A model generated the notes under the pieces. That model saw only the letters and a list, made by a program, of their open reading frames with translations, ran no database searches and was not told the DNA's origin. A DNA stretch of 64,000 nucleotides, from the IMG/VR virus record IMGVR_UViG_3300020432_000004. One strand, 5' to 3'. The translations under genes were made by a program, and so were the position numbers. How positions within the stretch are numbered: position 1 is the stretch's first letter; the number at the start of each line of letters is the position of its first letter. The stretch is from a virus (taxonomy: Duplodnaviria; Caudoviricetes). Below are positions 29,341 through 47,056 of the stretch, piece after piece.

Positions 29341-29867
29341 TAAACGTAGTCAAACAAGTCATTAATAAACAAACGTGCGAGGTGTTATGTAATAGTATGG
29401 AACTCATGAGAGTGAGTATGGGCAACCCACCAGACCCAACTATCAATAATGCATTTGGATATTATTCACCAGTATTCTTAGAGAGTTTATTGTTATGGAT
29501 GCAACCAGAGATAGAAAATAAAACTGGTAAAAAATTACATCCAACATACTCATACGGTAGGATATATGGACATGGATCAGAGTTAGAGAGACATACAGAT
29601 CGACCAAGTGGAGAGTATGGTGTAACGTGCTGTTTAGAAAAGCAATGTAATTTCCCTATATTTTTTGAGCGTGAAGGACATACTGTAGAAATAGAATTGG
29701 ATGTGGGTGATATATGCATATACAAAGGCATAGACTATCCCCATTGGAGAGAACCATATCAAGGTACAAGACACATACAAGTATTTCTCATGTATGTTGA
29801 TAGATCAGGTTTGTATCAGGATTACAAGTGGGATAAAAGATCGAGTTTGTGCCAACCACCAAACTGA
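29337..29867 (+). CDS. 2OG-Fe(II) oxygenase
   Basis: PTYSYGRIY...HTDRPS...HWRE...QVFL.YV. Confidence 0.85.
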   Translation: MINVVKQVINKQTCEVLCNSMELMRVSMGNPPDPTINNAFGYYSPVFLESLLLWMQPEIENKTGKKLHPTYSYGRIYGHGSELERHTDRPSGEYGVTCCLEKQCNFPIFFEREGHTVEIELDVGDICIYKGIDYPHWREPYQGTRHIQVFLMYVDRSGLYQDYKWDKRSSLCQPPN

Positions 29868-29927: not shown

Positions 29928-30173
29928 ATGCCCTCATTTATTCTAACTGCCACAGACCAAGATGGCACAGTAACAACCAAAACATTTGACTCAGAATTTC
30001 TAGGGGATACCGTAGAGAAAGTAGAGGATTTTCTACATGGAGTTGGATTTTGTTTTGAAGAACTTACTTGTAAGTTTAGTGATGACCATATCATCCCTAA
30101 CATCAAGACAGGAGAACCAGAAACCATTTATCGTGACAACATTCGTGACAATGTTGATATTGGTATCGAATAA
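29928..30173 (+). CDS. Hypothetical cyanophage protein
   Basis: 81-aa ORF downstream of a promoter. Confidence 0.75.
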   Translation: MPSFILTATDQDGTVTTKTFDSEFLGDTVEKVEDFLHGVGFCFEELTCKFSDDHIIPNIKTGEPETIYRDNIRDNVDIGIE

Positions 30174-31116: not shown

Positions 31117-31286
31117 AATATCATTTGTATGATACTGACGAAAGACATCAAGGATGTTTCAACTCTATTGAAGAGTTGAGAAATTTTTTATGTGATCGTA
31201 AGTATGCTATAAATTGTGATAAAGACATAGGTAGTACATTTGATTATATCAAACACATAAAATGGTATTTTGAAATAGAGGAATGA
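31113..31286 (+). CDS. Hypothetical protein (not in ORF track)
   Basis: MKYHLYDTDERHQG...WYFEIEE*, 57 aa, with ATGA overlaps at both ends. Confidence 0.7.
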   Translation: MKYHLYDTDERHQGCFNSIEELRNFLCDRKYAINCDKDIGSTFDYIKHIKWYFEIEE

Positions 31287-31903
31287 TTAAACACTTCAAT
31301 CCTAAATGGTATTTTCAAGATAGACTCACAGAAATAGATCAGCAAAAGATAGAAGATATGTTTGCTGACATCTATAATGATGGGGATGGTTTTGGCATAC
31401 CTAAAGATTGGCAGAGATTATGTAGAGTAACATCTACAGATAGAAAGAGTGACGGAAATCCTATTTGGGAAGATTTCCTCAACATACTAACACCATACCA
31501 AAATAAGTTTCTTAGTGAGATAGAAACATATTGGGAGACAGAGTTAGTATGCGATAACGTATGGGTTAACAAATATACAGAGGGAGATTTTCAAGAGGTT
31601 CATAACCATTGTCATCCTGATTATAATATTGCTATGGTTTATTTTCATAGGTGTGATGGGTCACAGTTTCATTTCTTTGATTCATCATGGACAGAATATA
31701 GATCAAGCGGATTAGATTATATCATGAATGTACCAGGTGATGAAGTGACACAGTTAGAGATAGAGCAAGGAGATATTATTATGTTTCCAACTAACTATCC
31801 TCATTTTGTATCACCTAATATGAGAGAGGAACTAAGGATAACATTTGCAGGTAATTTTAAGATGCAGAGAAAAGCTATGACACTTGGAGAAGTGACCATA
31901 TAA
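31283..31903 (+). CDS. 2OG-Fe(II) oxygenase-like (TIGR02466 type)
   Basis: WVNKY...QEVHNH...FP..YPHFV...RITFAGN. Confidence 0.85.
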   Translation: MIKHFNPKWYFQDRLTEIDQQKIEDMFADIYNDGDGFGIPKDWQRLCRVTSTDRKSDGNPIWEDFLNILTPYQNKFLSEIETYWETELVCDNVWVNKYTEGDFQEVHNHCHPDYNIAMVYFHRCDGSQFHFFDSSWTEYRSSGLDYIMNVPGDEVTQLEIEQGDIIMFPTNYPHFVSPNMREELRITFAGNFKMQRKAMTLGEVTI

Positions 31904-31932
31904 GTGACATACTAGTAATAGTATGTTATACT
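31876..31932 (+). promoter_or_regulatory. Palindrome-promoter element
   Basis: TATGACACT-tggaga-AGTGACCAT (31876-31899); TGn-TATACT at 31927. Confidence 0.55.
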
Positions 31933-31954: not shown

Positions 31955-32404
31955 ATGAAACTCAGACCTCAAATCGAACTCAACAAAACATATACTTATA
32001 CTTGTGATGCTACATTTGGCACACTATCACAGGAGAAAGTAAATAAGTTATTTACAGATGGTAGAAGAGCATCAGGATTTCTTGAGATTCAATTAGAAGA
32101 GTGGTTTCCTAATCTTACATTTGAAGATGGTAAGGGATATGACCACGTTGATACAGATGGAGTCAAGTATGATGCAAAATGTTTTACCAGAGGTGGAGCA
32201 AAATTTTGCCCAAGTGGTATGTTAGGTATGGGTAGAAAGGTTGATGAGAAAGAGTTATGGGAACACGCAGAGAATATGATTTACATATTTACAGATGTAG
32301 TAGAGTTTCCAAAAGTTCAAGTTAGATTTGTAAAAGGTTCTGACTTGACACAATATACAAAAGGTTCAATTCCATTCAAAGATAGAAATGTTTTATTTGG
32401 GTGA
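31955..32404 (+). CDS. Putative PD-(D/E)xK endonuclease
   Basis: E...GYDHVD...KYDAK catalytic-type motif; overlaps the MTase start. Confidence 0.5.
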   Translation: MKLRPQIELNKTYTYTCDATFGTLSQEKVNKLFTDGRRASGFLEIQLEEWFPNLTFEDGKGYDHVDTDGVKYDAKCFTRGGAKFCPSGMLGMGRKVDEKELWEHAENMIYIFTDVVEFPKVQVRFVKGSDLTQYTKGSIPFKDRNVLFG

Positions 32405-35507: not shown

Positions 35508-35806
35508 AACTAACTCAAGAGATTATCGACCAGATACAGGAAGCAATGCTACACACCAAAAAGGATGGTAGTATTAATTGGAGTGATGATGATGAACTTG
35601 TAGTACAATTAGCAGGGACATTTGCTAACGATAGATTTATTGTAATTAAGAATAAAACTAAAGACCCAGTTATTAGTGCTAAACCTCATCCATATTATGA
35701 TTATGAGAAGAATGTATTTACAAAAGATGGTAGAGAAGAGTATATGAAGGAGCAAAAAGAGTTAGCAACTAAAAGATTACATAATGACATAAAGAAATCA
35801 CAATGA
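35504..35806 (+). CDS. Hypothetical cyanophage protein
   Basis: 100-aa ORF with an RBS. Confidence 0.75.
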   Translation: MKLTQEIIDQIQEAMLHTKKDGSINWSDDDELVVQLAGTFANDRFIVIKNKTKDPVISAKPHPYYDYEKNVFTKDGREEYMKEQKELATKRLHNDIKKSQ

Positions 35807-36930
35807 AAGATACAATCTTATTTGGAGACTGTCGTGAAACACTTAAGAATCTAACAAATTCAAGTGTGCGAACGTGTGTTACATCCCCCCCATATTACGG
35901 TCTTAGGGATTATGGCACAGCAACATGGATAGGGGGAGACCCTAATTGCAACCATAGGAGAGATAGTAAAGTCAAACCTGAGAATTGTAATACAGGACAT
36001 AAGAATCATGATGAAATGTATGGAGTAGGGGATGCAATATATAAAACTGTTTGCCCTAAGTGTGGTGCAATAAGACAAGATAGTCAATTAGGACTCGAAG
36101 AAACACCAGAAGAATATATTGAAAGTCTTGTAGATGTATTTCGTAGTGTCAGGGATGTTTTAACTGATGATGGAACTTTATGGGTTAATTTAGGAGATAG
36201 TTATTATAACTATAGACCAGGAAAAGGTCAATCATATCCTAAACAGTCAGTATCTAAAACTAAACAAGATTTACCTGATGAATGTAATAAACGTGGTAAC
36301 AAATTAGATGGATTAAAAGAGAAAGATTTAATCGGCATCCCTTGGATGTTTGCGTTTGCTATGCGTAAAGATGGATGGTATTTAAGACAAGATATTATCT
36401 GGCATAAACCTAATCCAATGCCAGAAAGTGTAAAAGATAGATGTACTAAATCACATGAGTATATCTTTTTATTCAGTAAAAACAGAAAGTATTTTTATGA
36501 CAATGAATCAATCAAAGAACCAGTCAAACAAGACTGGGGAACAAGAAACCGCACAAATGGTAAGTACCATAATATTGGTAGTGGGTTATCTCCTCATAGT
36601 GGTCTTACCAAGTCTTATGACAGGAAGAATAAACGATCTGTTTGGTCAGTAACAGTTAAACCATATAAGGAAGCACATTTTGCTACTTATCCACCTGACT
36701 TAATCGAACCTTGCATTAAAGCAGGGAGTGAAGAAGGAGATACAATACTTGACCCATTTATGGGTGCAGGAACTACAGCGGCAGTTGCAAAGTCACTTAA
36801 TCGTTATTATATTGGATGTGAACTCAATGAAGATTATGGTAACTTAATTCAGAAAAGAATTGATGACTACTATCAACCAGTTGAAGAAGTGTCACAAAAT
36901 GGACTGACAGAACTTATTGATACACTATAA
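35803..36930 (+). CDS. DNA methyltransferase, N4-C/N6-A, beta class, with a Cys-rich insertion
   Basis: TSPPY, IIWHKPNPMPES, HFATYP and LDPFMGAGTT motifs; CNH...CPKC insert. Confidence 0.92.
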   Translation: MKDTILFGDCRETLKNLTNSSVRTCVTSPPYYGLRDYGTATWIGGDPNCNHRRDSKVKPENCNTGHKNHDEMYGVGDAIYKTVCPKCGAIRQDSQLGLEETPEEYIESLVDVFRSVRDVLTDDGTLWVNLGDSYYNYRPGKGQSYPKQSVSKTKQDLPDECNKRGNKLDGLKEKDLIGIPWMFAFAMRKDGWYLRQDIIWHKPNPMPESVKDRCTKSHEYIFLFSKNRKYFYDNESIKEPVKQDWGTRNRTNGKYHNIGSGLSPHSGLTKSYDRKNKRSVWSVTVKPYKEAHFATYPPDLIEPCIKAGSEEGDTILDPFMGAGTTAAVAKSLNRYYIGCELNEDYGNLIQKRIDDYYQPVEEVSQNGLTELIDTL

Positions 36931-36931
36931 T
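36873..36931 (+). promoter_or_regulatory. Palindrome-promoter element
   Basis: TCAACCAGT-tgaaga-AGTGTCACA (36873-36896); TATAAT 29 bp downstream. Confidence 0.7.
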
Positions 36932-36957
36932 AAAGGAGTCACTCAGACTTTCCCTAA

Positions 36958-37161
36958 TTGACACAACTACAACCTAAACCAACTCGCAAGAGAAGGACAC
37001 GTACTACTTCAAAAATAAATAAAACAAAACCAACCACACAAAAAATGGAAGTAGTCATTACAGAGGATACAAGAGAGAACAAACTTGATACGTTTAGTAT
37101 TATTATTTTACCATTTCTCTATCTTGAAGCATTTGTAAAACTTATCTTGCAAGTCAAGTGA
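36958..37161 (+). CDS. Hypothetical protein (basic N-terminus, hydrophobic C-terminus)
   Basis: 67-aa ORF downstream of a promoter. Confidence 0.55.
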   Translation: MTQLQPKPTRKRRTRTTSKINKTKPTTQKMEVVITEDTRENKLDTFSIIILPFLYLEAFVKLILQVK

Positions 37162-37214
37162 CACTCACATAACTGACTACCCCTCTTAACAGAGGGGTTT
37201 TTTTATGCTATACT
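37157..37214 (+). terminator. Palindrome element + terminator hairpin + -10 box
   Basis: AGTGACACT-cacata-ACTGACTAC; ACCCCTCT-taac-AGAGGGGT followed by a T run; TGn-TATACT at 37209. Confidence 0.7.
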
Positions 37215-37236
37215 ACATTTATTGATATTATATTTA

Positions 37237-38505
37237 ATGACCATTTCTTTGAGACCACATCAAAAAACTTGTTTAAATGCAATGTGGAAGAATGATAAGG
37301 GACAGATCATAGTGCCTACTGGCGGTGGTAAAACTTATATTATGATCGCTGATTTCATGAAGGAATTACAAGTAAGAAAAGCACATACTACAGTTGTAGT
37401 AGCACCTCGCATATTACTTGCAAATCAATTATGTTCTGATTTCTTTGAACATAACCTAGACAATAATCATAATCTTTCAATTCAATGTATGCATGTACAT
37501 AGTGGTGAGACTGGACATTATTCGACAACAAAAGCAAAAGATATTATGATGTGGCATCTAATGTCTAATGTTAATGAAGCGAGAATAATCTTTACAACTT
37601 ATCATTCATTACACAGAATAGTTGAGAGTAATATTCCAGTTGATACAATATACTTTGATGAAGCACATAACTCAACTGGTAAGAACTTCTTTAATGCAGT
37701 TAAAACAATATCAAAACGTATTGATAATAATTGTGGTAGTGCATACTTCTTTACAGCAACACCGAGATATGGTAGAGGTAAGTCAGAAGAGAGAGGTATG
37801 CAAAATTCTGATGTGTATGGACATGAGATAGCAAAAGTAAGTGCTAAAGAGTTAATTGACAATGGTATTATATTACCACCTATGATAGTTCCCTTTGATT
37901 CTAACTTGAATAGAAATAAAGTTAATGCTCATGAAGTTGATGCTAGTAACCTTAAATCTATTCTTACTGATACAATAGAGGATGATTCTAAAGTATTAGT
38001 ATCAGCACCAAGTACTAGAGTCTTAATGAATATGCTATCAAGGACAGATATACTAGAGTGGTTTAAGGAAAATGGATTTGATGTATTACATATTACATCT
38101 AAGTATGGTGCAGTCATCAATGGTAAGAAAGTAGGTAGAGATCAATTCTTTGATACTCTCAATGAGTGGGGACATACAGATAGAAAGTTTGTTGTTTTCC
38201 ATTATTCTATATTATCTGAAGGTATCAATGTAGCAGGTTTAACTCATACAGTATTACTACGCAACTTGCCTGTTATTGAAATGGCACAAACAATAGGTAG
38301 AGTAATAAGGATACATCCTGATGATCGTAAATCAGTTGCTGATGGTATTATACCAGTAGCACAATATTCTTTATATCGCAAGTCCTATGGTAACGTAACA
38401 GTTCCCCTATGCGGTAAGCATGGACAGAAAATTGCTGATAGACTCAATAATGTAGTCAATCAAATATTTGTAGAGGGAAATCCACCAATAGCGTGGGCAT
38501 CATAG
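37237..38505 (+). CDS. SF2 DEAH-box helicase (type III restriction Res-subunit-like)
   Basis: LRPHQ, PTGGGKT, DEAH, TATP, LSEGIN and QTIGRVIR motifs. Confidence 0.88.
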   Translation: MTISLRPHQKTCLNAMWKNDKGQIIVPTGGGKTYIMIADFMKELQVRKAHTTVVVAPRILLANQLCSDFFEHNLDNNHNLSIQCMHVHSGETGHYSTTKAKDIMMWHLMSNVNEARIIFTTYHSLHRIVESNIPVDTIYFDEAHNSTGKNFFNAVKTISKRIDNNCGSAYFFTATPRYGRGKSEERGMQNSDVYGHEIAKVSAKELIDNGIILPPMIVPFDSNLNRNKVNAHEVDASNLKSILTDTIEDDSKVLVSAPSTRVLMNMLSRTDILEWFKENGFDVLHITSKYGAVINGKKVGRDQFFDTLNEWGHTDRKFVVFHYSILSEGINVAGLTHTVLLRNLPVIEMAQTIGRVIRIHPDDRKSVADGIIPVAQYSLYRKSYGNVTVPLCGKHGQKIADRLNNVVNQIFVEGNPPIAWAS

Positions 38506-38586
38506 GACAGTTCAACAAAGTGGCACACAGTACTACCATTATGGTATCAAATGCAGTATTATAATAATATCAACAGCAAAAGCAAC

Positions 38587-38811
38587 ATGATTCATTCACT
38601 TCACTTTGGCAGAGTATTCTGGTTAAACCTTGATAATGAACTCATGTCAGCACCTTGGTTGAAGGATGGCACAGTTTTAGATGGCACATTTGGAACTGAA
38701 GATCAATCTGATTATGTTAGTGAGTGGACTGATCTCGAAGGTTTAAATCTTGAGAGATTACTTGACATTCATAAAGACCTGATTATTGCATCACTAGGAG
38801 AGCAAAAATGA
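38587..38811 (+). CDS. Small early hypothetical protein
   Basis: First ORF after the 38503 element; start adjusted to MIHSLHF. Confidence 0.7.
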   Translation: MIHSLHFGRVFWLNLDNELMSAPWLKDGTVLDGTFGTEDQSDYVSEWTDLEGLNLERLLDIHKDLIIASLGEQK

Positions 38812-38963
38812 ACCAGTCTTATACTAAAGACATTCAAGTCAATGTCACATTTGATGAAAAGTATCAATTTGACAAACTATATGATATACTAAGAGATATG
38901 GATTTTCCACTCACTAGTAAACAACATAGTGTATTTGAAAAAATCTTATTAGGAAACAACTAA
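38808..38963 (+). CDS. Small hypothetical protein (not in track)
   Basis: 51 aa, MNQSYTKDIQ...; AGGAG RBS; coupled. Confidence 0.65.
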   Translation: MNQSYTKDIQVNVTFDEKYQFDKLYDILRDMDFPLTSKQHSVFEKILLGNN

Positions 38964-39172
38964 TGAAAACAGCAGTATTTCAAGTAAGACTTGAAGCAAC
39001 ACCCGAAGCAGAAATCAATCCGTTTCACTTAGCAGAAGAGATACAGGCATATCTTAATGCTCATGTATGTTCAGTAAATGATACTACTGATACATTCGAG
39101 GATGTTAGAGTAATTGGATACAAATTTGATTACGATAACTTTATTCCTACTCAATTCGATTACGAGATTTAA
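38963..39172 (+). CDS. Small hypothetical protein
   Basis: 69-aa coupled ORF. Confidence 0.7.
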   Translation: MKTAVFQVRLEATPEAEINPFHLAEEIQAYLNAHVCSVNDTTDTFEDVRVIGYKFDYDNFIPTQFDYEI

Positions 39173-39173
39173 A

Positions 39174-39311
39174 ATGAACATTCCAACTTACGATTTTCCC
39201 CATTCACCAATATTAATTATTGGATTCTTTGGTATATTAACAGCACTTACAGTACTATTTGTTGCTAATAGATCATACTTTGATAGTCCATTCAATGCTG
39301 ATAAAAAATGA
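39174..39311 (+). CDS. Small single-TM protein
   Basis: MNIPTYDFPHSPILIIGFFGILTALTVLFVANR... Confidence 0.65.
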   Translation: MNIPTYDFPHSPILIIGFFGILTALTVLFVANRSYFDSPFNADKK

Positions 39312-39526
39312 GAGCAACAGTAACATTTGAAATATCAGAAGAAGAAATTGAATTATTTAAGGATAATCTTAATTTCTTTACTGAAGAAGTTGACCTTAAT
39401 GGTAACAGTTGTTCAGAAGAGAGAGCAATTAATCACTTGCTAGGATGTATCAGAAATGAGAACATACGCAATATCCAATACTTAAATAAACCAATTCGCC
39501 CAGTTCACATTTATTTCAATGACTAA
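39308..39526 (+). CDS. Small hypothetical protein
   Basis: 72-aa coupled ORF. Confidence 0.7.
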   Translation: MRATVTFEISEEEIELFKDNLNFFTEEVDLNGNSCSEERAINHLLGCIRNENIRNIQYLNKPIRPVHIYFND

Positions 39527-39785
39527 AAAAGTTTATCACGTTAAATGCTCAGAGACAGTAGAGTTTACTGTATCAATCGAAGCAGAGTCCGAAGAGGAAG
39601 CAAGAGAACTAGCAGTAGAGGACATTAACTCACATGAAGTTATTGCAGAGTCAACAACCGACTGGGATATTGACGAGATTATACTAGAGCAAGAAGAGTG
39701 GTATAATCAACCCGACCCAGTTGGACTAGAGTCAGTTACGGATGCTGATTATAACTCAGAAGGTGAGTTAAAAGATCAAGCATAG
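39519..39785 (+). CDS. Small highly acidic protein
   Basis: 88 aa, E/D-rich, with an IEAESEEEA motif. Confidence 0.7.
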   Translation: MTKKVYHVKCSETVEFTVSIEAESEEEARELAVEDINSHEVIAESTTDWDIDEIILEQEEWYNQPDPVGLESVTDADYNSEGELKDQA

Positions 39786-39868
39786 GACAGTACTACTAGT
39801 GGCACATTGTTTTACCATTATGGTATTATTCACAGTATTATAATAATATACAAATTCAATTAAAGATC

Positions 39869-40009
39869 ATGAGAACTTTAAAACTTGATGAAAAGCAGAA
39901 TGAAACACTTGAAGCAATGCTTAAGTATTTCTATGAAATCAAGATCAATCCAAAATATGAAAAAGGATTTATCGCATTATGGGATAACTTTCAAGATCAG
40001 GGAGAGTAA
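39869..40009 (+). CDS. Small hypothetical protein (not in track)
   Basis: 46 aa, MRTLKLDEKQ..., first ORF after the 39783 element. Confidence 0.6.
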   Translation: MRTLKLDEKQNETLEAMLKYFYEIKINPKYEKGFIALWDNFQDQGE

Positions 40010-40011
40010 TT

Positions 40012-40179
40012 ATGCCAATTATTAAGTTAACAATCGAAGAGCATCAATCACTCACTCGATTTTTAAGTCATCCTAAAGCAATGAAATATAGGAGTGACTT
40101 ATATGACACAGAAACTTTTGACTCAATGGAAGATAAAGTTTATGATGCAGTAAACAATTTAACAGTAGAGGATTTTTAA
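40012..40179 (+). CDS. Small hypothetical protein (not in track)
   Basis: 55 aa, MPIIKLTIEE...; GGAG RBS. Confidence 0.65.
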   Translation: MPIIKLTIEEHQSLTRFLSHPKAMKYRSDLYDTETFDSMEDKVYDAVNNLTVEDF

Positions 40180-40407
40180 ATGGATTTAAAACTATCAGAT
40201 AAAGAGTTTAACATACTAAAAGAGTTTTATGTTGAGCGATTAGTTGATAATATGTCAACAAAAGATTTAGTACAATATGTAAGTGATGACCTAACAAAAT
40301 GGGTGGATTCATTAACATATAATGAAGCAATAGTTGAATTTCAAGAATACTGGGATGAGTATTTTACTGACACTATTGAAGAAGTAAGGGAGTGCATCAA
40401 TGAGTAA
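40180..40407 (+). CDS. Small acidic hypothetical protein
   Basis: 75 aa; GAGG RBS. Confidence 0.7.
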   Translation: MDLKLSDKEFNILKEFYVERLVDNMSTKDLVQYVSDDLTKWVDSLTYNEAIVEFQEYWDEYFTDTIEEVRECINE

Positions 40408-40672
40408 TATTGAAAACAAGTATTCAGATTATGACTGTTACAAAAAAGAGGAAGATTTAAACAGAAAACATAATCTAACATTAACAGAAGGTCAAATCTC
40501 AACTATCCTATACACAATGGAAGGATATATGCAGGGAAGTGATGATGCAGAAGATAGCGACTTTCATAAGGATGTTGATTCTATATTTGAAGTATTAGAA
40601 ACAACTATTGATAAGTTTTATGATAAACTTGCTAAACTTAAAGCATCAAAACCAAAACCAGAGTGGGATTAA
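40400..40672 (+). CDS. Small hypothetical protein
   Basis: 90 aa; GGAG RBS. Confidence 0.7.
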   Translation: MSNIENKYSDYDCYKKEEDLNRKHNLTLTEGQISTILYTMEGYMQGSDDAEDSDFHKDVDSIFEVLETTIDKFYDKLAKLKASKPKPEWD

Positions 40673-40828
40673 ATGATGACTGTTAAAGAAGAACTATTCG
40701 ATCAAATCGAAGAATTAAATACAAGTCTAAGAGAACTAACCGATTATGAGTTAGTTGACTGTAGAAATGCTCTCATCAATAGAACTAACATATTAATGGG
40801 ACTATTGGATGAGTTAGAGGACAGTTAA
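40673..40828 (+). CDS. Small hypothetical protein (not in track)
   Basis: 51 aa, MMTVKEELF...LEDS*; the stop codon lies inside the palindrome. Confidence 0.6.
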   Translation: MMTVKEELFDQIEELNTSLRELTDYELVDCRNALINRTNILMGLLDELEDS

Positions 40829-40902
40829 TTATGTGTCACAATGTACCACGCATAGGTTACAAAATACCTTATAATAAGAGTATTCAAACATCATTAAACA
40901 AA

Positions 40903-41097
40903 ATGGACACAAGAAAAGGATTATCAATCGAAGTTTCCGACAGTCAGTATGATTTCTTATATGAAGTCTTAATGGAAGCGTACTCAAATGATGTAGCAGA
41001 GCAAAAAGGATGGGATGTTCAAACATTCGATAATCTTATTGATAACGTATGCAATGCTAAAGTGACCTACCTATCCAACTCAGTCAAAGGAGTGTAG
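40903..41097 (+). CDS. Small hypothetical protein
   Basis: Start adjusted to MDTRKG, downstream of the 40817 element. Confidence 0.7.
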   Translation: MDTRKGLSIEVSDSQYDFLYEVLMEAYSNDVAEQKGWDVQTFDNLIDNVCNAKVTYLSNSVKGV

Positions 41098-41100
41098 GTC

Positions 41101-41271
41101 ATGAGCAACAAAACATCCGCAGATTTAGTTAAAGAATACGTTTTAGACCATTATAGACATTTTGGTTTTTTACCTCATGATGTAGAGGTTAATGGGACAG
41201 TATTCGATTATGGAACATACAACTTAATGCTAGATTTATTTTTCCCTAAACTAACAGATTATTTAAAATGA
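41101..41271 (+). CDS. Small hypothetical protein (not in track)
   Basis: 56 aa, MSNKTSADLV...; AGGAG RBS. Confidence 0.65.
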   Translation: MSNKTSADLVKEYVLDHYRHFGFLPHDVEVNGTVFDYGTYNLMLDLFFPKLTDYLK

Positions 41272-41414
41272 AAACATTATTAGAAGAGATACATGACATT
41301 ATCGAAGAAGGCGATAATGGAACATCACATGATATAGTTGATATAATGTTCAACTTATTAGATGTTAACCAACTTGCTCAATTACAAGACATTGTTATTA
41401 ATCAAAACTATTAA
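41268..41414 (+). CDS. Small hypothetical protein (not in track)
   Basis: 48 aa, MKTLLEEIHD...; ATGA overlap. Confidence 0.6.
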   Translation: MKTLLEEIHDIIEEGDNGTSHDIVDIMFNLLDVNQLAQLQDIVINQNY

Positions 41415-41415
41415 A

Positions 41416-41592
41416 ATGAAAACATTTATTATTCAAGAGAAATTCATAGGTTATAACGATATAACTATTGAAGCATCTACAGAAGAGGAAGCGATCTCAC
41501 TTTATAATAAAGGTTATTATAAAGATAGTGATGTTGATAGGGATGATATGTTTTATGATTTTCAATTCGATTCAATTAGAGAGGACAACTAA
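41416..41592 (+). CDS. Small acidic protein
   Basis: MKTFIIQE...IEASTEEEA; resembles 39519..39785. Confidence 0.65.
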   Translation: MKTFIIQEKFIGYNDITIEASTEEEAISLYNKGYYKDSDVDRDDMFYDFQFDSIREDN

Positions 41593-41774
41593 TGAAAACT
41601 ATTAAATTAACTGATAAACAATTCCAGGAACTTCACACTTATGTTATTGACACTTGCGAAGATATTATGGATAGATCGCTAGAGTGGGCAGATTCAGATT
41701 TGAGTAATGAAATAATTGATGATAATGAAATAGTATTTACACTTAGATCAATTTTAGATGGAGTATCAAAATGA
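41592..41774 (+). CDS. Small hypothetical protein
   Basis: 60-aa coupled ORF. Confidence 0.7.
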   Translation: MKTIKLTDKQFQELHTYVIDTCEDIMDRSLEWADSDLSNEIIDDNEIVFTLRSILDGVSK

Positions 41775-41938
41775 AAACATACGATAAGAAAACAAGTGTT
41801 TTTGTTAACCTATCTCGACTATATGAAGATAGCGAAAATATGATGTTTTATGACATACTTGACCATATAGTAGAAATTTGTAATGATAAACAATTAGATA
41901 GCATTTTAAACACTATACAAGAGAATTACAACAAGTGA
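41771..41938 (+). CDS. Small hypothetical protein (not in track)
   Basis: 55 aa, MKTYDKKTSV...; the stop codon abuts the 41939 element. Confidence 0.6.
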   Translation: MKTYDKKTSVFVNLSRLYEDSENMMFYDILDHIVEICNDKQLDSILNTIQENYNK

Positions 41939-42025
41939 TGTACCAGTTCAACAAAGTGGCACAATACCTATTGTGTTTTTCTATAATTTCGATTATTATT
42001 AGTTCATAGTTAATTAATCAAGTTT

Positions 42026-42178
42026 ATGACTAACCAAAAACGTTATGAATCATTCCTTAGATGGGAAGCAATGATCGCTAGACAACAGGCAAGAAAAGCA
42101 GGAAAGTCAGTTGATGAACTTTACAATTTACAGAATCGTTCAGAGTGGTTCGATTCCAACTTTAAACTTATTAAATAG
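42026..42178 (+). CDS. Small hypothetical protein (not in track)
   Basis: 50 aa, MTNQKRYESF... Confidence 0.6.
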   Translation: MTNQKRYESFLRWEAMIARQQARKAGKSVDELYNLQNRSEWFDSNFKLIK

Positions 42179-42190
42179 GAGTCTTTTATT

Positions 42191-42361
42191 ATGATGCAAT
42201 ACTTTATAGAAATCCCAAATACACAAATTAGAGAACCAGTAAGCGGTTTTTGTTATGATATATTATATGATATGGCACAGCAGTATGGTCATGCAGAATT
42301 AGTATGGTATGCCAATAATGGCACTAGGATGATACAGGGAGTATATACAGACAAAGATTAA
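42191..42361 (+). CDS. Small hypothetical protein (not in track)
   Basis: 56 aa, MMQYFIEIPN...; AGGAG RBS. Confidence 0.65.
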   Translation: MMQYFIEIPNTQIREPVSGFCYDILYDMAQQYGHAELVWYANNGTRMIQGVYTDKD

Positions 42362-42456
42362 AAAGTCAACCAGTAGTGTGACGGTAATAGTACTGTCACA
42401 CAATTTTACCATACTGGTATTATTACCTTTATAATAATAGTAATTAAACAAACAAA

Positions 42457-42753
42457 ATGCACCCACTTCAAATTGTGAACACTTTAAGACAGATTAATGA
42501 ATTTGTTGATTATGTAGATTCATTCTATGGTCAAAATGACCCATTATACCCATTATACTTAAATGGAGTAGCATTATCTAAAGAGCATATTCGCCACGCT
42601 ATTATAGTATATTTGGATAGATGCCATAATGATGATTTTGAAAATTGCTCTTGGGGTGATGGTGATTCACTTGATCGTGAGAGAGTGAGAGATATTCTAA
42701 CAGATAAATTTGGATATGGCGAGAGCAAATTTTATAGAAGTGTGACAGTTTAA
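42457..42753 (+). CDS. Small hypothetical protein
   Basis: 98 aa; single-gene cassette between two elements. Confidence 0.75.
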   Translation: MHPLQIVNTLRQINEFVDYVDSFYGQNDPLYPLYLNGVALSKEHIRHAIIVYLDRCHNDDFENCSWGDGDSLDRERVRDILTDKFGYGESKFYRSVTV

Positions 42754-42830
42754 TTACTGTCATACTATTCTACACAATAGTCAAAAATTACACTATACTT
42801 AGTATATACAAATCAAAGGAGCATTTTTAA

Positions 42831-43307
42831 ATGACTACTACACTTCCAAACATTAACACTTCACTAAGAGTTAGAGAATGGACAGAGCAACTTTGCAGAA
42901 GTCTAGAGGATAATTACAGAAATTATAAAGTCAGGATGCTAACTAGCAATTCTATCAGATATTCAAAAGGTGATAATATCCTAGGCAAGAGACAAGACTT
43001 ATCTGACTATGCTATTCAGCAATTAAAAGAGATAAATGACGGAGTTGAAGGTAGTTTAATGAAGTTTAGAATAATCGAAGGTAAAAAGTACTTTAAAGTT
43101 GTAAATCAGGAATTTAGATACGGAGAGTGGTCAGACAGTTCAGTAAATTGTTTTGTTAACAAATTAACTGGTGAAGTGCATAAAGCAGCAAGTTGGAAGT
43201 CCCCAGTTAAGGGAGCAAGATTTGACATGAGAATTATAAGACACAGAGAATTGATGCATAACCCAGATTTTACTGACTGGGCAGGTGGTTATCTTTATCT
43301 AAGATAA
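42831..43307 (+). CDS. Conserved phage hypothetical protein
   Basis: GKKYFKV...CFVNK.TGEVHKAASWKSP.KGARF...DWAGGYLY motif. Confidence 0.8.
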   Translation: MTTTLPNINTSLRVREWTEQLCRSLEDNYRNYKVRMLTSNSIRYSKGDNILGKRQDLSDYAIQQLKEINDGVEGSLMKFRIIEGKKYFKVVNQEFRYGEWSDSSVNCFVNKLTGEVHKAASWKSPVKGARFDMRIIRHRELMHNPDFTDWAGGYLYLR

Positions 43308-43329
43308 CCCAATTCTCCAGGAATTTATT

Positions 43330-43527
43330 ATGTTTATCGTTACACATATAGATGTTCATGAATCACTAGACGAGGACATTCAGTTTAAAATTGATAATGG
43401 TCTCGGTCTATGGTCATCTAAAGAGCATGAAATTTGGGATGATGTAGAAAAATACATTCAACCCTATACTCTCAAAAGACTAGAGTATGAAAAAAACAGA
43501 CCTCACGCATTAACTTCTTTTAAATAA
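43330..43527 (+). CDS. Small hypothetical protein
   Basis: 65-aa ORF. Confidence 0.7.
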   Translation: MFIVTHIDVHESLDEDIQFKIDNGLGLWSSKEHEIWDDVEKYIQPYTLKRLEYEKNRPHALTSFK

Positions 43528-43528
43528 A

Positions 43529-43696
43529 ATGACAACTAAAAAACCATTTAAAAAAACAACTGAATACTTCACAGTTAACTTTGAAAGTAAGACCGACTAC
43601 AACAAAGTTATCAAACATTTAAAACTAGAGGGACTAACCTTAGATTATTACCTATTAGAATTTGATTTGGAAGGGGTGCTAGGACAGTCTAATTAG
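43529..43696 (+). CDS. Small hypothetical protein (not in track)
   Basis: 55 aa, MTTKKPFKKT...; the stop codon lies inside the palindrome. Confidence 0.55.
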   Translation: MTTKKPFKKTTEYFTVNFESKTDYNKVIKHLKLEGLTLDYYLLEFDLEGVLGQSN

Positions 43697-43769
43697 TGTC
43701 ACATAGTACTGGTATTTGTTACCAGTATGCACTATAATAAGAGTAATCAAACAAAAGGAGTATTTCAAA

Positions 43770-44168
43770 ATGCCACTAACAGCAGTTGTTTCAAAAAAGA
43801 ACTATAAGACAGTCAAAATTGACACATATCAGAAATTGCTACTTAATGCTATTGATACCTATGGGAGTGGAGACTGGAAGAATAATATGTCAATTCACCA
43901 TAAGCACGATCAGAGTATGTTCAGCAATATTTTAATCGGTTCACAAGTTGTTGCTAAGGTAGTTTATGATGTTGCCCATGATGATATTTCTTGTGATGAC
44001 TATAGAGCAATTCATATTGATAAAACAAAATTCGCTCAGGTTAGTTATATCGCATTTGTAAATGATGTTGACCAGTTTAGAGACTCTCATCAAATCGTTA
44101 GATACAGAAATATGCTCAGTAAATTTTACACAGTTATACAAGTAGCAAATAAGTGCATCAAATACTAG
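43770..44168 (+). CDS. Hypothetical protein
   Basis: Start adjusted to MPLTAVV after the AAAAGGAG RBS; single-gene cassette. Confidence 0.75.
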   Translation: MPLTAVVSKKNYKTVKIDTYQKLLLNAIDTYGSGDWKNNMSIHHKHDQSMFSNILIGSQVVAKVVYDVAHDDISCDDYRAIHIDKTKFAQVSYIAFVNDVDQFRDSHQIVRYRNMLSKFYTVIQVANKCIKY

Positions 44169-44264
44169 TAACAGTATGACAGTACGATTAGTGGCACATT
44201 AACCCACTAATCGACTGTAAAATACACTATAATTAAGATAACAAAACAAAAGGAGCATTTCAAA

Positions 44265-44525
44265 ATGTTATTCACACATGAGACAAAAGAATTTGGAACT
44301 ATCCATACTCAAGCAATGATTAACTCTTTTATTCCCTTTGAAGTCATCATGAGAGAGACTACAGAAGGCGGTGATGCATTATCTGACTTTGAAGGATATG
44401 ACCCTAGTATGGGTGCATCATGTCAAGAGTTAACAGAAGTGTGTGATGACATTTATGACACATTACTATTACACGCTCTTAAAACATATCCAGACAAAGC
44501 AATTAGAGGTATTAAAACAAAATGA
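44265..44525 (+). CDS. Small hypothetical protein
   Basis: 86 aa after the AAGGAG RBS. Confidence 0.75.
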   Translation: MLFTHETKEFGTIHTQAMINSFIPFEVIMRETTEGGDALSDFEGYDPSMGASCQELTEVCDDIYDTLLLHALKTYPDKAIRGIKTK

Positions 44526-44650
44526 GTTGCCTACAGAATGAAATCATCCTCGAAAATCTATTCGAGGAGGTTCAAACCGAATTTCCAGACTTATCCGAGG
44601 ATGAGCAAATTAAAAAAACTTACGAATTATTCGAGGACTTAATTCAATGA
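44522..44650 (+). CDS. Small acidic protein (not in track)
   Basis: 42 aa, MSCLQNEIILENLFEEV...; GAGG RBS. Confidence 0.65.
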   Translation: MSCLQNEIILENLFEEVQTEFPDLSEDEQIKKTYELFEDLIQ

Positions 44651-44817
44651 ACAAAATAGAAGGATTCACACCTAATCGTACAGAATACGATTTAATCTAT
44701 TCAGCATTTAGACATTTTAGATGTTTAATGACTGATGAGCAGGAGGTCATGAGCGAGCAGATACTTGATAAACTATTTTATCCTAGTTTTGATAATTTGA
44801 CTCAAAATGACCTATAA
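44647..44817 (+). CDS. Small hypothetical protein (not in track)
   Basis: 56 aa, MNKIEGFTPN...; ATGA overlap. Confidence 0.6.
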   Translation: MNKIEGFTPNRTEYDLIYSAFRHFRCLMTDEQEVMSEQILDKLFYPSFDNLTQNDL

Positions 44818-45025
44818 ACCAGTATGGTATGACTCTACCAAACAAAAAGAGTCTTTTTACAAAAAGTTCCAGGAAATCCAAATCGGGGACTATGTAAGGT
44901 ATTATAAAGAGTATGGTCAGATCATACTACGTTTTGATGATACCGAACAAGTTTATCTAACTAACGATAAACATTATATGCTTCCAATTAACTGGAAAAA
45001 AACTAAAATCATTGCTAAATTTTAA
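44807..45025 (+). CDS. Small hypothetical protein
   Basis: 72-aa ORF. Confidence 0.65.
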   Translation: MTYKPVWYDSTKQKESFYKKFQEIQIGDYVRYYKEYGQIILRFDDTEQVYLTNDKHYMLPINWKKTKIIAKF

Positions 45026-45026
45026 A

Positions 45027-45254
45027 ATGACTCAACTTGAATTTCTAACCGAAGTATTAAGCGATTATTGCTATAATGAGCAATTACCGTTTATGTCAGC
45101 ATCCGATATACTTCACACATATAAAGCGACTCTTTCAGTATCTCAACGAGAGTGGTTAAGAAATTATATCATAGTATGGGATATTATACAAGAAAATGAT
45201 AGTCTTGTGGATATGCCCGCCCGATTTTTTGGTATAGATAATATAATGGTCTAA
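45027..45254 (+). CDS. Small hypothetical protein
   Basis: Start adjusted to MTQLEFL. Confidence 0.6.
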   Translation: MTQLEFLTEVLSDYCYNEQLPFMSASDILHTYKATLSVSQREWLRNYIIVWDIIQENDSLVDMPARFFGIDNIMV

Positions 45255-45260
45255 TCCCCC

Positions 45261-45289
45261 ATTCTAGTATAATTTCCGAAAAATGTCAA
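45261..45289 (-). promoter_or_regulatory. Antisense sigma70 promoter
   Basis: The minus strand reads TTGACA-17 bp-TAGAAT. Confidence 0.55.
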
Positions 45290-45369
45290 CCCATTTTCAA
45301 TTAATTCCTTGGTGCGAAGTAGTCCACGCTATTGAAGTATTAAGGTATGAAGAGTTAACAAAAGACACT

Positions 45370-45522
45370 ATGACATATAAGCAACTAATCGAAGAGTTAA
45401 AAAAACTTACTGATGAGCAACTTAATATGGAGGTAGTCATATATGATAAGGATTGCGAGGATTCAATAAAAGCAGACTCGCACATAATCATCAAAAATGG
45501 ACAGGTTTACATAGGCATTTAA
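45370..45522 (+). CDS. Small hypothetical protein
   Basis: MTYKQLIEELKKLTDEQLNMEVVIYD, a common phage small-protein start. Confidence 0.65.
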   Translation: MTYKQLIEELKKLTDEQLNMEVVIYDKDCEDSIKADSHIIIKNGQVYIGI

Positions 45523-45524
45523 TT

Positions 45525-45764
45525 ATGGGTGATGAACTTTTAAAAAAATACAATTTCATGAAAGGTGAATTAATCGAAGTTAAAAACGATATAGGGAGGA
45601 TTAACTTTATAAGTGATGAGTACATTACCATAACAACAAAGCACGAAGATAATCAAAATTTCAAAAGTGGATATAAACAAACTAACGTAGTAATAAGCAA
45701 TGCATATTGGAAAGAAATAAAATTCATAACAAGAGAGGAATTAATCAGAGTAACCCATGACTAA
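45525..45764 (+). CDS. Small hypothetical protein
   Basis: Start adjusted to MGDELLKK. Confidence 0.6.
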   Translation: MGDELLKKYNFMKGELIEVKNDIGRINFISDEYITITTKHEDNQNFKSGYKQTNVVISNAYWKEIKFITREELIRVTHD

Positions 45765-45912
45765 GGACAGTAATAAAGATAATAAACTGATTCTAAAAAG
45801 GACATCCGCAGGTATGATAACATACTGTTTTATAGTATGTAAAGAGATCATCATAGGGTTATGGGAGATAGTCAGAAATAAGAAATATTATAGGAGGGAT
45901 ATAGAGAAATAA
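45757..45912 (+). CDS. Small hypothetical protein (not in track)
   Basis: 51 aa, MTKDSNKDNK... Confidence 0.4.
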   Translation: MTKDSNKDNKLILKRTSAGMITYCFIVCKEIIIGLWEIVRNKKYYRRDIEK

Positions 45913-46058
45913 ATCAATATCCGTATAATTTACTGATAATAATAAATATCAAAATAAATCTATTAGTGTTTATCTTATCGTTATTAATATGCGATCTTAA
46001 TACGGTCTTAGCATACATCCTACCGACTTGCAAGGAATATCACAGAATCGTCACAAAC

Positions 46059-46087
46059 TTGACAGGCACAGAGATTTATGGGATAAT
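46059..46087 (+). promoter_or_regulatory. Sigma70-like promoter
   Basis: TTGACA-17 bp-GATAAT with an extended TG. Confidence 0.55.
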
Positions 46088-46112
46088 ATTACATAACCAA
46101 TAGTATGCCCAG

Positions 46113-46295
46113 TTGCCTATGATAGTTCCAGGAAAGTATAAAACACTTGCCGAGAAATTTCCCCTTATCAGTAATGAGCAGACTATAGAATTATGTCAGT
46201 TTTTACTTGATACGGAACAGGTTACGGAGAGATATAAACAGACAGTAACCAGACTATTAGAGGAGGGATTTTTGTACCACGTGCCAATCACATAA
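46113..46295 (+). CDS. Small hypothetical protein
   Basis: 60 aa; the stop codon lies inside the 46280 palindrome. Confidence 0.65.
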   Translation: MPMIVPGKYKTLAEKFPLISNEQTIELCQFLLDTEQVTERYKQTVTRLLEEGFLYHVPIT

Positions 46296-46369
46296 GTGGC
46301 ACATTAGAGGGTGCACACAGGTAACCATATACTATAATAGATGTATACCAAACAAAGGAGCATTTAAAA

Positions 46370-46588
46370 ATGAATCTTACACCAATCGCATCTAACATGA
46401 CTGAGGTAGAGACAAAAACACACCGTATTTTATTCAGTTATAGAACACCAGTTGCTGCTTTTGAATTTGGTAGAGGTTACATCAAAACAGAACAATTTTG
46501 GTCAGTAACTACTAGCAGACACATAAACAAGTGGGGTGCTAAGGGTGGCGAAGAGGTTCCCCAATCTTACTTAGACAACCTAGTGTAA
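46370..46588 (+). CDS. Conserved phage hypothetical protein
   Basis: ILFSYRTPVAA...WSVTTSRHINKW motif; strong RBS. Confidence 0.8.
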   Translation: MNLTPIASNMTEVETKTHRILFSYRTPVAAFEFGRGYIKTEQFWSVTTSRHINKWGAKGGEEVPQSYLDNLV

Positions 46589-46647
46589 TTGACACACAGG
46601 TAAAAAACGATTATAATAGGGTTAACTCACACTAACCCTATTTTTTT
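46589..46647 (+). terminator. Perfect sigma70 promoter overlapping a terminator hairpin
   Basis: TTGACA(46589)-17-TATAAT(46612); AATAGGGTTA-actcacac-TAACCCTATT followed by a T run. Confidence 0.7.
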
Positions 46648-46852
46648 ATGCTTTAATATTTGACAGTTATTATGAAACGATAATCATTTTCATTTAGCCC
46701 TTATGGCAGTTATGGGGGTTATCTTTGGATGGTGGGTGGCCGATATATTAAAAAAGATAGAGACCCTAACCTACAAAGGTTCCCAAACGCATGTTAAATA
46801 TTAATCGAAAATAAAAAAATCCCCAGTACAAAAAATTTCCCAGAGGTAAAAA

Positions 46853-47056
46853 ATGACTTCACAAGATGATCGTGTATGGTGCATAGAGCAACTTATAAGG
46901 AAAGAAGGTTTCCTAGACAATCGAATGTATGAGTGTGCACAACAATGTGCTATATCTGGTAGACCTGAGACTAAGGAAGAACTATATACATCATGGGAGT
47001 TATGGAAGAGTACACATCCAGACAAAAATCCCTTCAATCAGAGAAATAAACTATGA
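46853..47056 (+). CDS. Hypothetical protein
   Basis: 67 aa; GAGG RBS. Confidence 0.7.
   Translation: MTSQDDRVWCIEQLIRKEGFLDNRMYECAQQCAISGRPETKEELYTSWELWKSTHPDKNPFNQRNKL

Follow-up and report, generated by a model that had tools for sequence, protein, structure and literature searches.

Organization of the locus

We analyzed a 64,000-nt stretch of viral DNA (hereafter, the window) from IMG/VR record IMGVR_UViG_3300020432_000004, in which groups of small genes are headed by a repeated promoter unit consisting of two inverted arms, separated by 6 or 7 bases and followed at a fixed distance by a -10 box. The sequence scanned was the 86 kb contig of which the window comprises bases 16733-80732. 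By sequence similarity, the contig is assigned to a T4-like cyanomyophage, the nearest isolates being S-TIM4, P-RSM4, and P-SSM4. A megablast search with positions 36000-47000 returned matches to marine T4-like cyanomyophages only; S-TIM4, P-RSM4, P-SSM4, and P-RSM3 were ~82% identical, with the similarity confined to the methylase and helicase genes. The promoter array is located between this methylase/helicase pair and the baseplate genes, and the corresponding stretch in S-TIM4, Syn9, and P-TIM40 consists of dozens of small genes of unknown function. Pfam and PHROGs searches of the cassette genes, as we call those in the array, yielded a DNA methylase, a helicase, DUF7717, and otherwise only families without a known function, and no DNA-binding candidate was found among the cassette genes scanned. 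No Rfam family was found in the window; thus, no unit drives a known small RNA (sRNA).

An earlier sequence-only reading of the window had listed 14 copies of the unit. Ten of them proved robust and three (29848, 31876, and 37157) are decayed but recognizable, whereas the copy at 9089 retains a right arm only. The units and the open reading frames (ORFs) that they head are as follows, with scores in bits from a matrix trained on related phages.

36873..36931, + strand: promoter unit 1, weak left arm and strong right arm, 19.7 bits; a 29-nt spacer region with CTGACA, then TATAAT; precedes a 67-aa ORF with a TTG start (36958-37161)
37157..37214, + strand: decayed promoter unit with a TATACT box, ahead of the helicase gene (37237-38505)
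37179-37198: terminator hairpin and T run within the spacer of unit 37157, before TATACT
38503..38565, + strand: promoter unit with a 7-nt arm spacer, -10 box TATTAT or overlapping TATAAT; heads six small ORFs (38587-39785)
39783..39844, + strand: promoter unit, 27.0 bits; heads small ORFs (39869-40828)
40817..40875, + strand: promoter unit, 19.5 bits
41939..41999, + strand: promoter unit, arm spacer of 7 nt, -10 box TATTAT; heads ORFs 42026-42361
42377..42435, + strand: promoter unit, near-perfect dyad (8/9 pairs), 21.0 bits; heads ORF 42457-42753
42741..42799, + strand: promoter unit, near-perfect dyad, TATACT, 27.0 bits; heads the DUF7717 gene (42831-43307)
43680..43738, + strand: promoter unit, 28.9 bits; heads ORF 43770-44168
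44175..44233, + strand: promoter unit, 32.3 bits; heads about ten small ORFs (44265-46295)
46280..46338, + strand: promoter unit, last of the array, 22.4 bits; heads ORF 46370-46588
31876..31932, + strand: decayed unit before ORF 31955-32404, with a strong S-TIM4 counterpart, 3.5 bits
29848..29905, + strand: decayed unit at the end of an oxygenase operon, before ORF 29928-30173, with an S-TIM4 dyad counterpart, -7.4 bits
9089..9148, + strand: doubtful member with a perfect right arm and no left arm, 12.4 bits from the right arm alone; an ordinary promoter (TTGACC-17-TAGTAT) lies downstream

Anatomy of the promoter unit

To avoid circularity, we scanned the whole contig with an independent matrix built from 23 sites of S-TIM4, P-TIM40, and Syn9 only. 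Eight window sites scored 19-32 bits, all on the + strand (anchors 36889, 39799, 40833, 42393, 42757, 43696, 44191, and 46296), and in each of the eight a -10-like hexamer lies exactly 29 nt past the right arm. Every contig match of at least 19 bits fell in the array or was a reverse reading of an array site; shuffled contigs gave a mean of 4.3 matches above 6 bits, both strands combined. The sites at 38503 and 41939 represent the same promoter unit with one extra base in the arm spacer, which is 7 nt long. All ten robust copies are on the + strand, between 36873 and 46338. The right-arm G sits 37 nt ahead of the first T of the TATAAT-like box, and a start codon follows 21-31 nt past every -10 box.

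The decayed copies at 29848, 31876, and 37157 scored -7.4, 3.5, and -0.6 bits with the independent matrix and retain a -10 box 27-28 nt downstream, with a start codon 22 nt past the box. They coincide with S-TIM4 dyads, of which two are strong + strand sites (L001 anchors 11706 and 14191); the third counterpart, near L001 10638, scores on the - strand only.

The sequence-only reading had stated that the hexamer lies at a fixed distance past the right arm, and this holds at 29 nt for the ten robust copies and at 27-28 nt for the decayed ones. Its remark that a good -35 element is missing is borne out by a scan for the -35/-10 consensus, which found 66 sites against 60.7 expected. As it had described, the units head groups of small + strand genes, in what is a region of small genes of unknown function in T4-like cyanophages. 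The motif scan that it had suggested, over the genome and related phages, recovers the window copies with the independent matrix and finds the unit in the relatives.

The 9-6-9 consensus proposed at the same time is far above chance, but its exact form fits related phages better than the window. A pattern search found 0 occurrences of the exact consensus in the window, and 4 matches with up to three mismatches, against 0.08 expected. The core common to the sites is a left arm ending in GACAGT, 6-7 free bases, and the right arm AGTGKCACA. In the window the arms are asymmetric, the left being mostly TAGGACAGT and the right AGTGKCACA. The left arm has drifted, its outer end being mostly TAGG rather than TGTG, and most copies are not true palindromes. 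In S-TIM4 the arms form the near-perfect palindrome that the consensus implied.

The arms as a protein site

An inverted repeat at the end of an upstream transcript could act as an RNA or DNA hairpin, namely a terminator, a processing site, or a cruciform. Read-through from the upstream module would transcribe the dyad, and three window copies (42377, 42741, and 46280) have favorable folds (z scores between -4.6 and -7.4). However, only these 3 of the 10 window copies have at least eight complementary arm pairs or a stable fold, whereas the other seven pair at 4-7 positions and fold no better than shuffled sequences. The departures from symmetry recur between copies (TAGG at the outer left arm and G as the second right-arm base) and are not compensated. 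Where terminators are present, they are separate hairpins downstream of the dyad. We therefore regard a hairpin function as highly improbable. Since the arms are conserved even though 7 of the 10 window copies cannot form a hairpin, their conservation appears to be one of sequence and indicates a protein site with sequence-specific recognition.

The unit in other cyanophages and metagenomes

With a matrix trained on the window, we found 12 units within 11 kb of S-TIM4, 8 in P-TIM40, and 4 in Syn9, all on the + strand and ahead of annotated small genes. BLAST matches to the unit were also obtained in S-SSM4, P-RSM4, P-SSM3, and P-SSM4. An exact-pattern scan of IMG/VR showed that at least 120 viral metagenome stretches carry the unit pattern. 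Among the 149 distinct matches listed, 67 have a -10-like box 29 or 30 nt past the right arm, and every other arm-to-box distance is represented by at most 5 cases. The sequence of the spacer is not conserved across phages. That its length is fixed while its content is free is as expected if a bound protein must sit at a set distance from the polymerase. A G+C-rich hairpin with a T run occurs in the spacer of 13 of the 67 copies with correct geometry among the matches listed; this hairpin is the terminator of the upstream unit.

Doron and colleagues reportedly described, in 2016, a "novel regulatory element" of early genes in the T4-like cyanophages Syn9 and P-TIM40, said to be abundant in cyanophages and metagenomes. 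The unit studied here is from the same phage group, precedes small genes of unknown function in Syn9 and P-TIM40, and is likewise abundant in other cyanophages and in metagenomes. The two are probably the same element, a match made on these properties and not on the published logo and start sites. Full-text literature searches found no paper that prints a cyanophage early motif. The promoter type is thus real but already known; what the contig contributes is a further member whose arms are drifted and host-like.

Likeness to host yfr2 promoters

We located yfr2 genes in host genomes with Rfam model RF01701 (Cyano-1), which we take to be the Yfr2 sRNA family, and read 36 upstream regions. The arms of the phage unit are those of the host yfr2 promoter element, a likeness that the sequence-only reading had missed. 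The host element occurs in two forms. The first has inward-facing half-sites over a single base: CAACTGTCAC, one base, and GTGACAGTTG. The second, found in loci of 40-44% GC and in many Synechococcus, consists of a block TAGGACAGTT or TATGACAGTT and then, after five bases, AGCGCCAC; it matches the phage arms in order and spacing, and its left-arm variant is the one carried by the window.

A matrix built from 33 phage sites was used to rank ~6080 positions per yfr2 locus. A position just upstream of yfr2 ranked first or second in 18 of the 36 host loci, and for 17 of these loci the anchor is 42-48 nt ahead of the RNA start. The half-site shared by phage and host is at about -64 to -55 in both, the phage anchor being 37 nt before the -10 box. 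Four of 10 host matches to a joint exact pattern stand in front of yfr2. In five Synechococcus genomes, and likewise in 151 host-family genomes, the perfect phage dyad was present at control-level counts only. Hence the phage site does not simply reproduce a host site; what the control-level counts show is that the host form of the element differs.

Two further host arrangements came to light. In the Synechococcus yfr2 promoters L215, L216, and L223, a phage-like two-block element lies ~52 nt before the -10 box together with a full inward-facing palindrome over the -35 region; the pair may be an activating and a blocking site for one regulator. A host-family locus (L255, G038:C1:128295-128314, - strand) carries a phage-like unit with the right arm AGTGGCAC and TATAGT ~31 nt further on. 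This locus is not beside yfr2 and may be a second host target or phage-derived DNA.

PlmA as the candidate docking protein

According to Lambrecht et al. (2018, PMC6191309), CGRE1 makes the yfr2 sRNA promoters of Prochlorococcus and marine Synechococcus responsive to PMM1637/PlmA; it is a palindrome of 21-22 nt with GTTG or GTTA flanks that is located 55-57 nt upstream of the start. The inward-facing host form fits this description. The same study reports that PMM1637, the Prochlorococcus homologue of PlmA, is pulled down by a yfr2 promoter and not by one with a scrambled CGRE1, that it gel-shifts yfr2 and yfr4 promoters, and that it raises their reporter output in Escherichia coli (PMC6191309). 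In the MED4 genome, CGRE1 is confined to yfr2 promoters (PMC6778093). Cyanophage promoters go unmentioned in the text of both CGRE1 papers (PMC6191309, PMC6778093). The phage arms equal CGRE1 half-sites, and the promoter-distal one stands as far from the start as in the host, which makes PlmA the foremost candidate for the dyad-binding protein, a role that we put at about an even chance. T4-like cyanophages transcribe their early genes in 12 of 12 resistant Prochlorococcus and Synechococcus strains tested (PMC6708340), as would fit a universal host factor, and they are without the T4 proteins Alt, ModA/ModB, MotA, and AsiA (PMC2984593). No GntR gene was found in the contig or in three complete phage genomes.

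From the observed anatomy of the units, their conservation across phages, and their likeness to host yfr2 promoters, we consider it rather probable that they are T4-like cyanophage promoters for hyperplastic early-type small genes, with host PlmA as the likely docking protein. Each unit comprises a two-armed site of ~24 bp for protein docking, a 29-30 bp spacer, fixed in length and free in sequence, a TATAAT-like -10 box that lacks a -35 partner, and a short leader of ~15-25 nt. The primary RNA polymerase of the host would read the -10 box, while a dimeric protein bound about five helical turns upstream would substitute for the missing -35 contact. That protein would most likely be the host GntR-type activator PlmA (PMM1637 in Prochlorococcus MED4), which every cyanobacterium already contains before infection.

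The sequence-only reading had placed an activator site of early genes near -54. A protein site at a fixed distance stands, with its center at ~-53.5 if transcription is assumed to start ~7 nt past the -10 box, whereas activation and early timing are less direct. We infer the timing of the units from their gene content and from the element reportedly described by Doron and colleagues; activation rather than repression, and PlmA as the factor, are suggested by the sequence comparisons.

Tentatively, and at a little short of an even chance, we propose that T4-like cyanophages launch infection by borrowing PlmA, their early promoters being rearranged, stronger yfr2 promoters. If so, early phage expression would be wired to host nitrogen and light signaling through the PII-PipX-PlmA axis, and each phage lineage would follow the promoter dialect of the clade it infects, the window phage carrying the left-arm variant of low-GC host genomes.

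Alternatively, the dyad could dock a protein other than PlmA: one that enters along with the phage DNA, a different host factor, or an early product of the phage that turns the promoters off again. The likeness to yfr2 would then reflect shared promoter ancestry or a coincidence of short GT/AC-rich half-sites. Several points weigh for this alternative and against PlmA. Host half-sites face inward across 1-2 nt whereas phage arms face outward across 6-7 nt, and one dimer may be unable to fit both arrangements. The outward arrangement with a 6-nt gap is phage-specific, the perfect phage dyad being all but missing in the 151 host-family genomes (allowing two mismatches, 4 sites against 1 for the control). 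In PMC6191309, PMM1637 gave no shift of host promoters that have only one good half-site, and it is on the strength of the text description in that paper that the host block is here called CGRE1. The G/T choice at one arm position co-varies with contig GC (p = 0.018), which base composition explains equally well. Binding of the dyad by PlmA is itself a prediction from sequence.

Against a different protein, early promoters have to work ahead of any phage protein synthesis, and neither a GntR gene nor another recognizable DNA-binding gene is present among the cassette genes scanned. Moreover, the half-site agrees with that of host yfr2 promoters in sequence as well as in distance to the start, and the rigid spacing to the -10 box is more in keeping with activation than with repression. 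We therefore judge a protein other than PlmA to be rather unlikely, and retain PlmA as the favored candidate.

Possible recombination and gene shuffling at the units

The sequence-only reading had also likened the arm-6-arm layout to the core site of a tyrosine recombinase, which would excise or swap cassettes. The layout itself, 9-bp inverted arms around 6-7 bp, is what speaks for this idea. Searches with PF00589 (Phage_integrase) gave no match in the contig or in the complete genomes of S-TIM4, Syn9, and P-TIM40, and the site is tied to the -10 box in both distance and orientation. The central 6-7-nt spacers are all different in the ten copies, which would be incompatible with strand exchange between partner sites. 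With no recombinase gene in these genomes and differing central bases, a site-specific core is very unlikely, and the suggestion is close to refuted.

The units could instead double as homology patches at which general recombination shuffles small genes, in the manner of the PeSL elements of other T4-type phages. The promoter at 40820-40890 (71 bp) shares 90% identity with one in S-TIM4, yet its flanking genes are unrelated, and some promoter pairs are 72-87% identical over 50-110 bp. In a 98%-identical metagenome relative (L258), a divergent segment (83%) ends at 36935-36946, right at a -10 box. Promoter and terminator are combined in window copy 37157, as in the 13 of 67 metagenome copies among the matches listed. 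Nevertheless, the border at 36935-36946 was the only one of six breakpoints to fall at a unit in the comparison with L258, the single close relative compared; the other five are at gene borders without a promoter. Because promoters sit between genes in any case, a few would be expected to fall at junctions. Genes that belong to one window module are spread over several S-TIM4 modules, which implies that genes move singly and not as promoter-bounded cassettes. The case for homology-driven shuffling at the units is thus suggestive but thin, and we regard such a role as possible but doubtful.

Relative to L258, the DNA methylase gene (35803-36930, PF01555) is a mosaic in which 35915-36074 is replaced and 36074-36935 is only 83% identical; this may represent a swapped target-recognition part. 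The small gene at 42184-42361 has 95% protein and 89% DNA identity to S-TIM4 ORF_75, whereas its neighbors are 40-68% identical or absent, a pattern that suggests that a single gene was exchanged recently. In S-TIM4, one additional gene separates ORF_75 from the next promoter. An apparent circular permutation of gene and promoter relative to S-TIM4 resolved as simple synteny with one gene-sized indel beside the promoter.

Additional features of the window

A second small palindrome, TACCAT-3 bases-TGGTA, is common to the -35 region of three promoters (38528-38556, 39807-39835, and 42401-42429). Two of the three are ~81% identical across 70 bp and are therefore recent duplicates of each other. 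A dyad-like sequence at 31729-31753 (15.8 bits) lies inside ORF 31283-31903 and has no -10 box at the right spacing; it may be a remnant or have arisen by chance.

Directly past the last dyad-headed gene, 46589-46642 contains a perfect TTGACA-17-TATAAT promoter, and a hairpin of 10 pairs that carries a T run overlaps it. The promoter is host-like and of a different class, and it precedes genes that are conserved in S-TIM4 and Syn9 and lead into the baseplate module. The methylase/helicase order (35803-38505) is inverted relative to S-TIM4 (L001 14253-16420). The ORF at 39519-39785 (88 aa) gave a DpnD/PcfM-like match at 24.7 bits, just below the Pfam cut-off of 25.

Implications

The match to yfr2 turns the question of what recruits host polymerase to cyanophage early genes into an experiment on a named protein, and the value of the contig lies in this named, testable candidate factor. 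If PlmA is the factor, the first infection step of highly abundant ocean viruses would depend on a host nitrogen/light sensor, which could help explain the dependence of infection on the physiological state of the host. In annotation, the unit also reliably marks where transcription units start within small-gene regions, in cyanomyophage genomes as in metagenome contigs, that otherwise offer no features.

Comparison with known promoter systems

In activator-dependent promoters such as class I CRP promoters, the site of an upstream dimer lies at a fixed distance from the -10 box, and the -35 element is poor or absent. The phage unit shares the two-fold site, its fixed distance upstream of the -10 box, and the poor or absent -35, but its center at ~-53.5 differs from the -61.5 or -41.5 of CRP-type promoters, its half-site sequence is another, and its likely reader would belong to the GntR family. 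Separately, sites of NtcA, CRP, LexA, and PhoB were rejected as counterparts of the arms, their half-site spacing and sequence not fitting.

PeSLs, cassettes that join a promoter to a terminator, occur in T4-type coliphages and in vibriophages (Arbiol et al. 2010, PMC2839356; Comeau et al. 2014, PMC4122927); they have a near-consensus -35/-10 pair and, in every case, a stem-loop. The sequence-only reading had invoked them as analogues. The likeness lies in promoter units that recur throughout a hyperplastic region of small nonessential genes, with a terminator in some copies and, perhaps, with some copies at junctions between related genomes. In contrast to PeSLs, the window units have an upstream protein site in place of the -35, and the terminator is optional, being present in 1 of 13 window units (37179-37198). 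The one breakpoint at a promoter supports the analogy weakly; the missing -35, the single terminator copy, and the shuffling of genes one at a time speak against it.

A further parallel is with CGRE1 promoters. Phage and host share the half-site sequence, the G/T choice at the same arm position, and a -10 box without a -35 partner. The promoter-distal phage arm is as far from the start as the matching host half-site, and low-GC host promoters have the phage-like order of two blocks. The deployment differs: the host uses the element for yfr2 genes only, whereas the phage uses it for 10-13 groups of protein genes within 10-17 kb.

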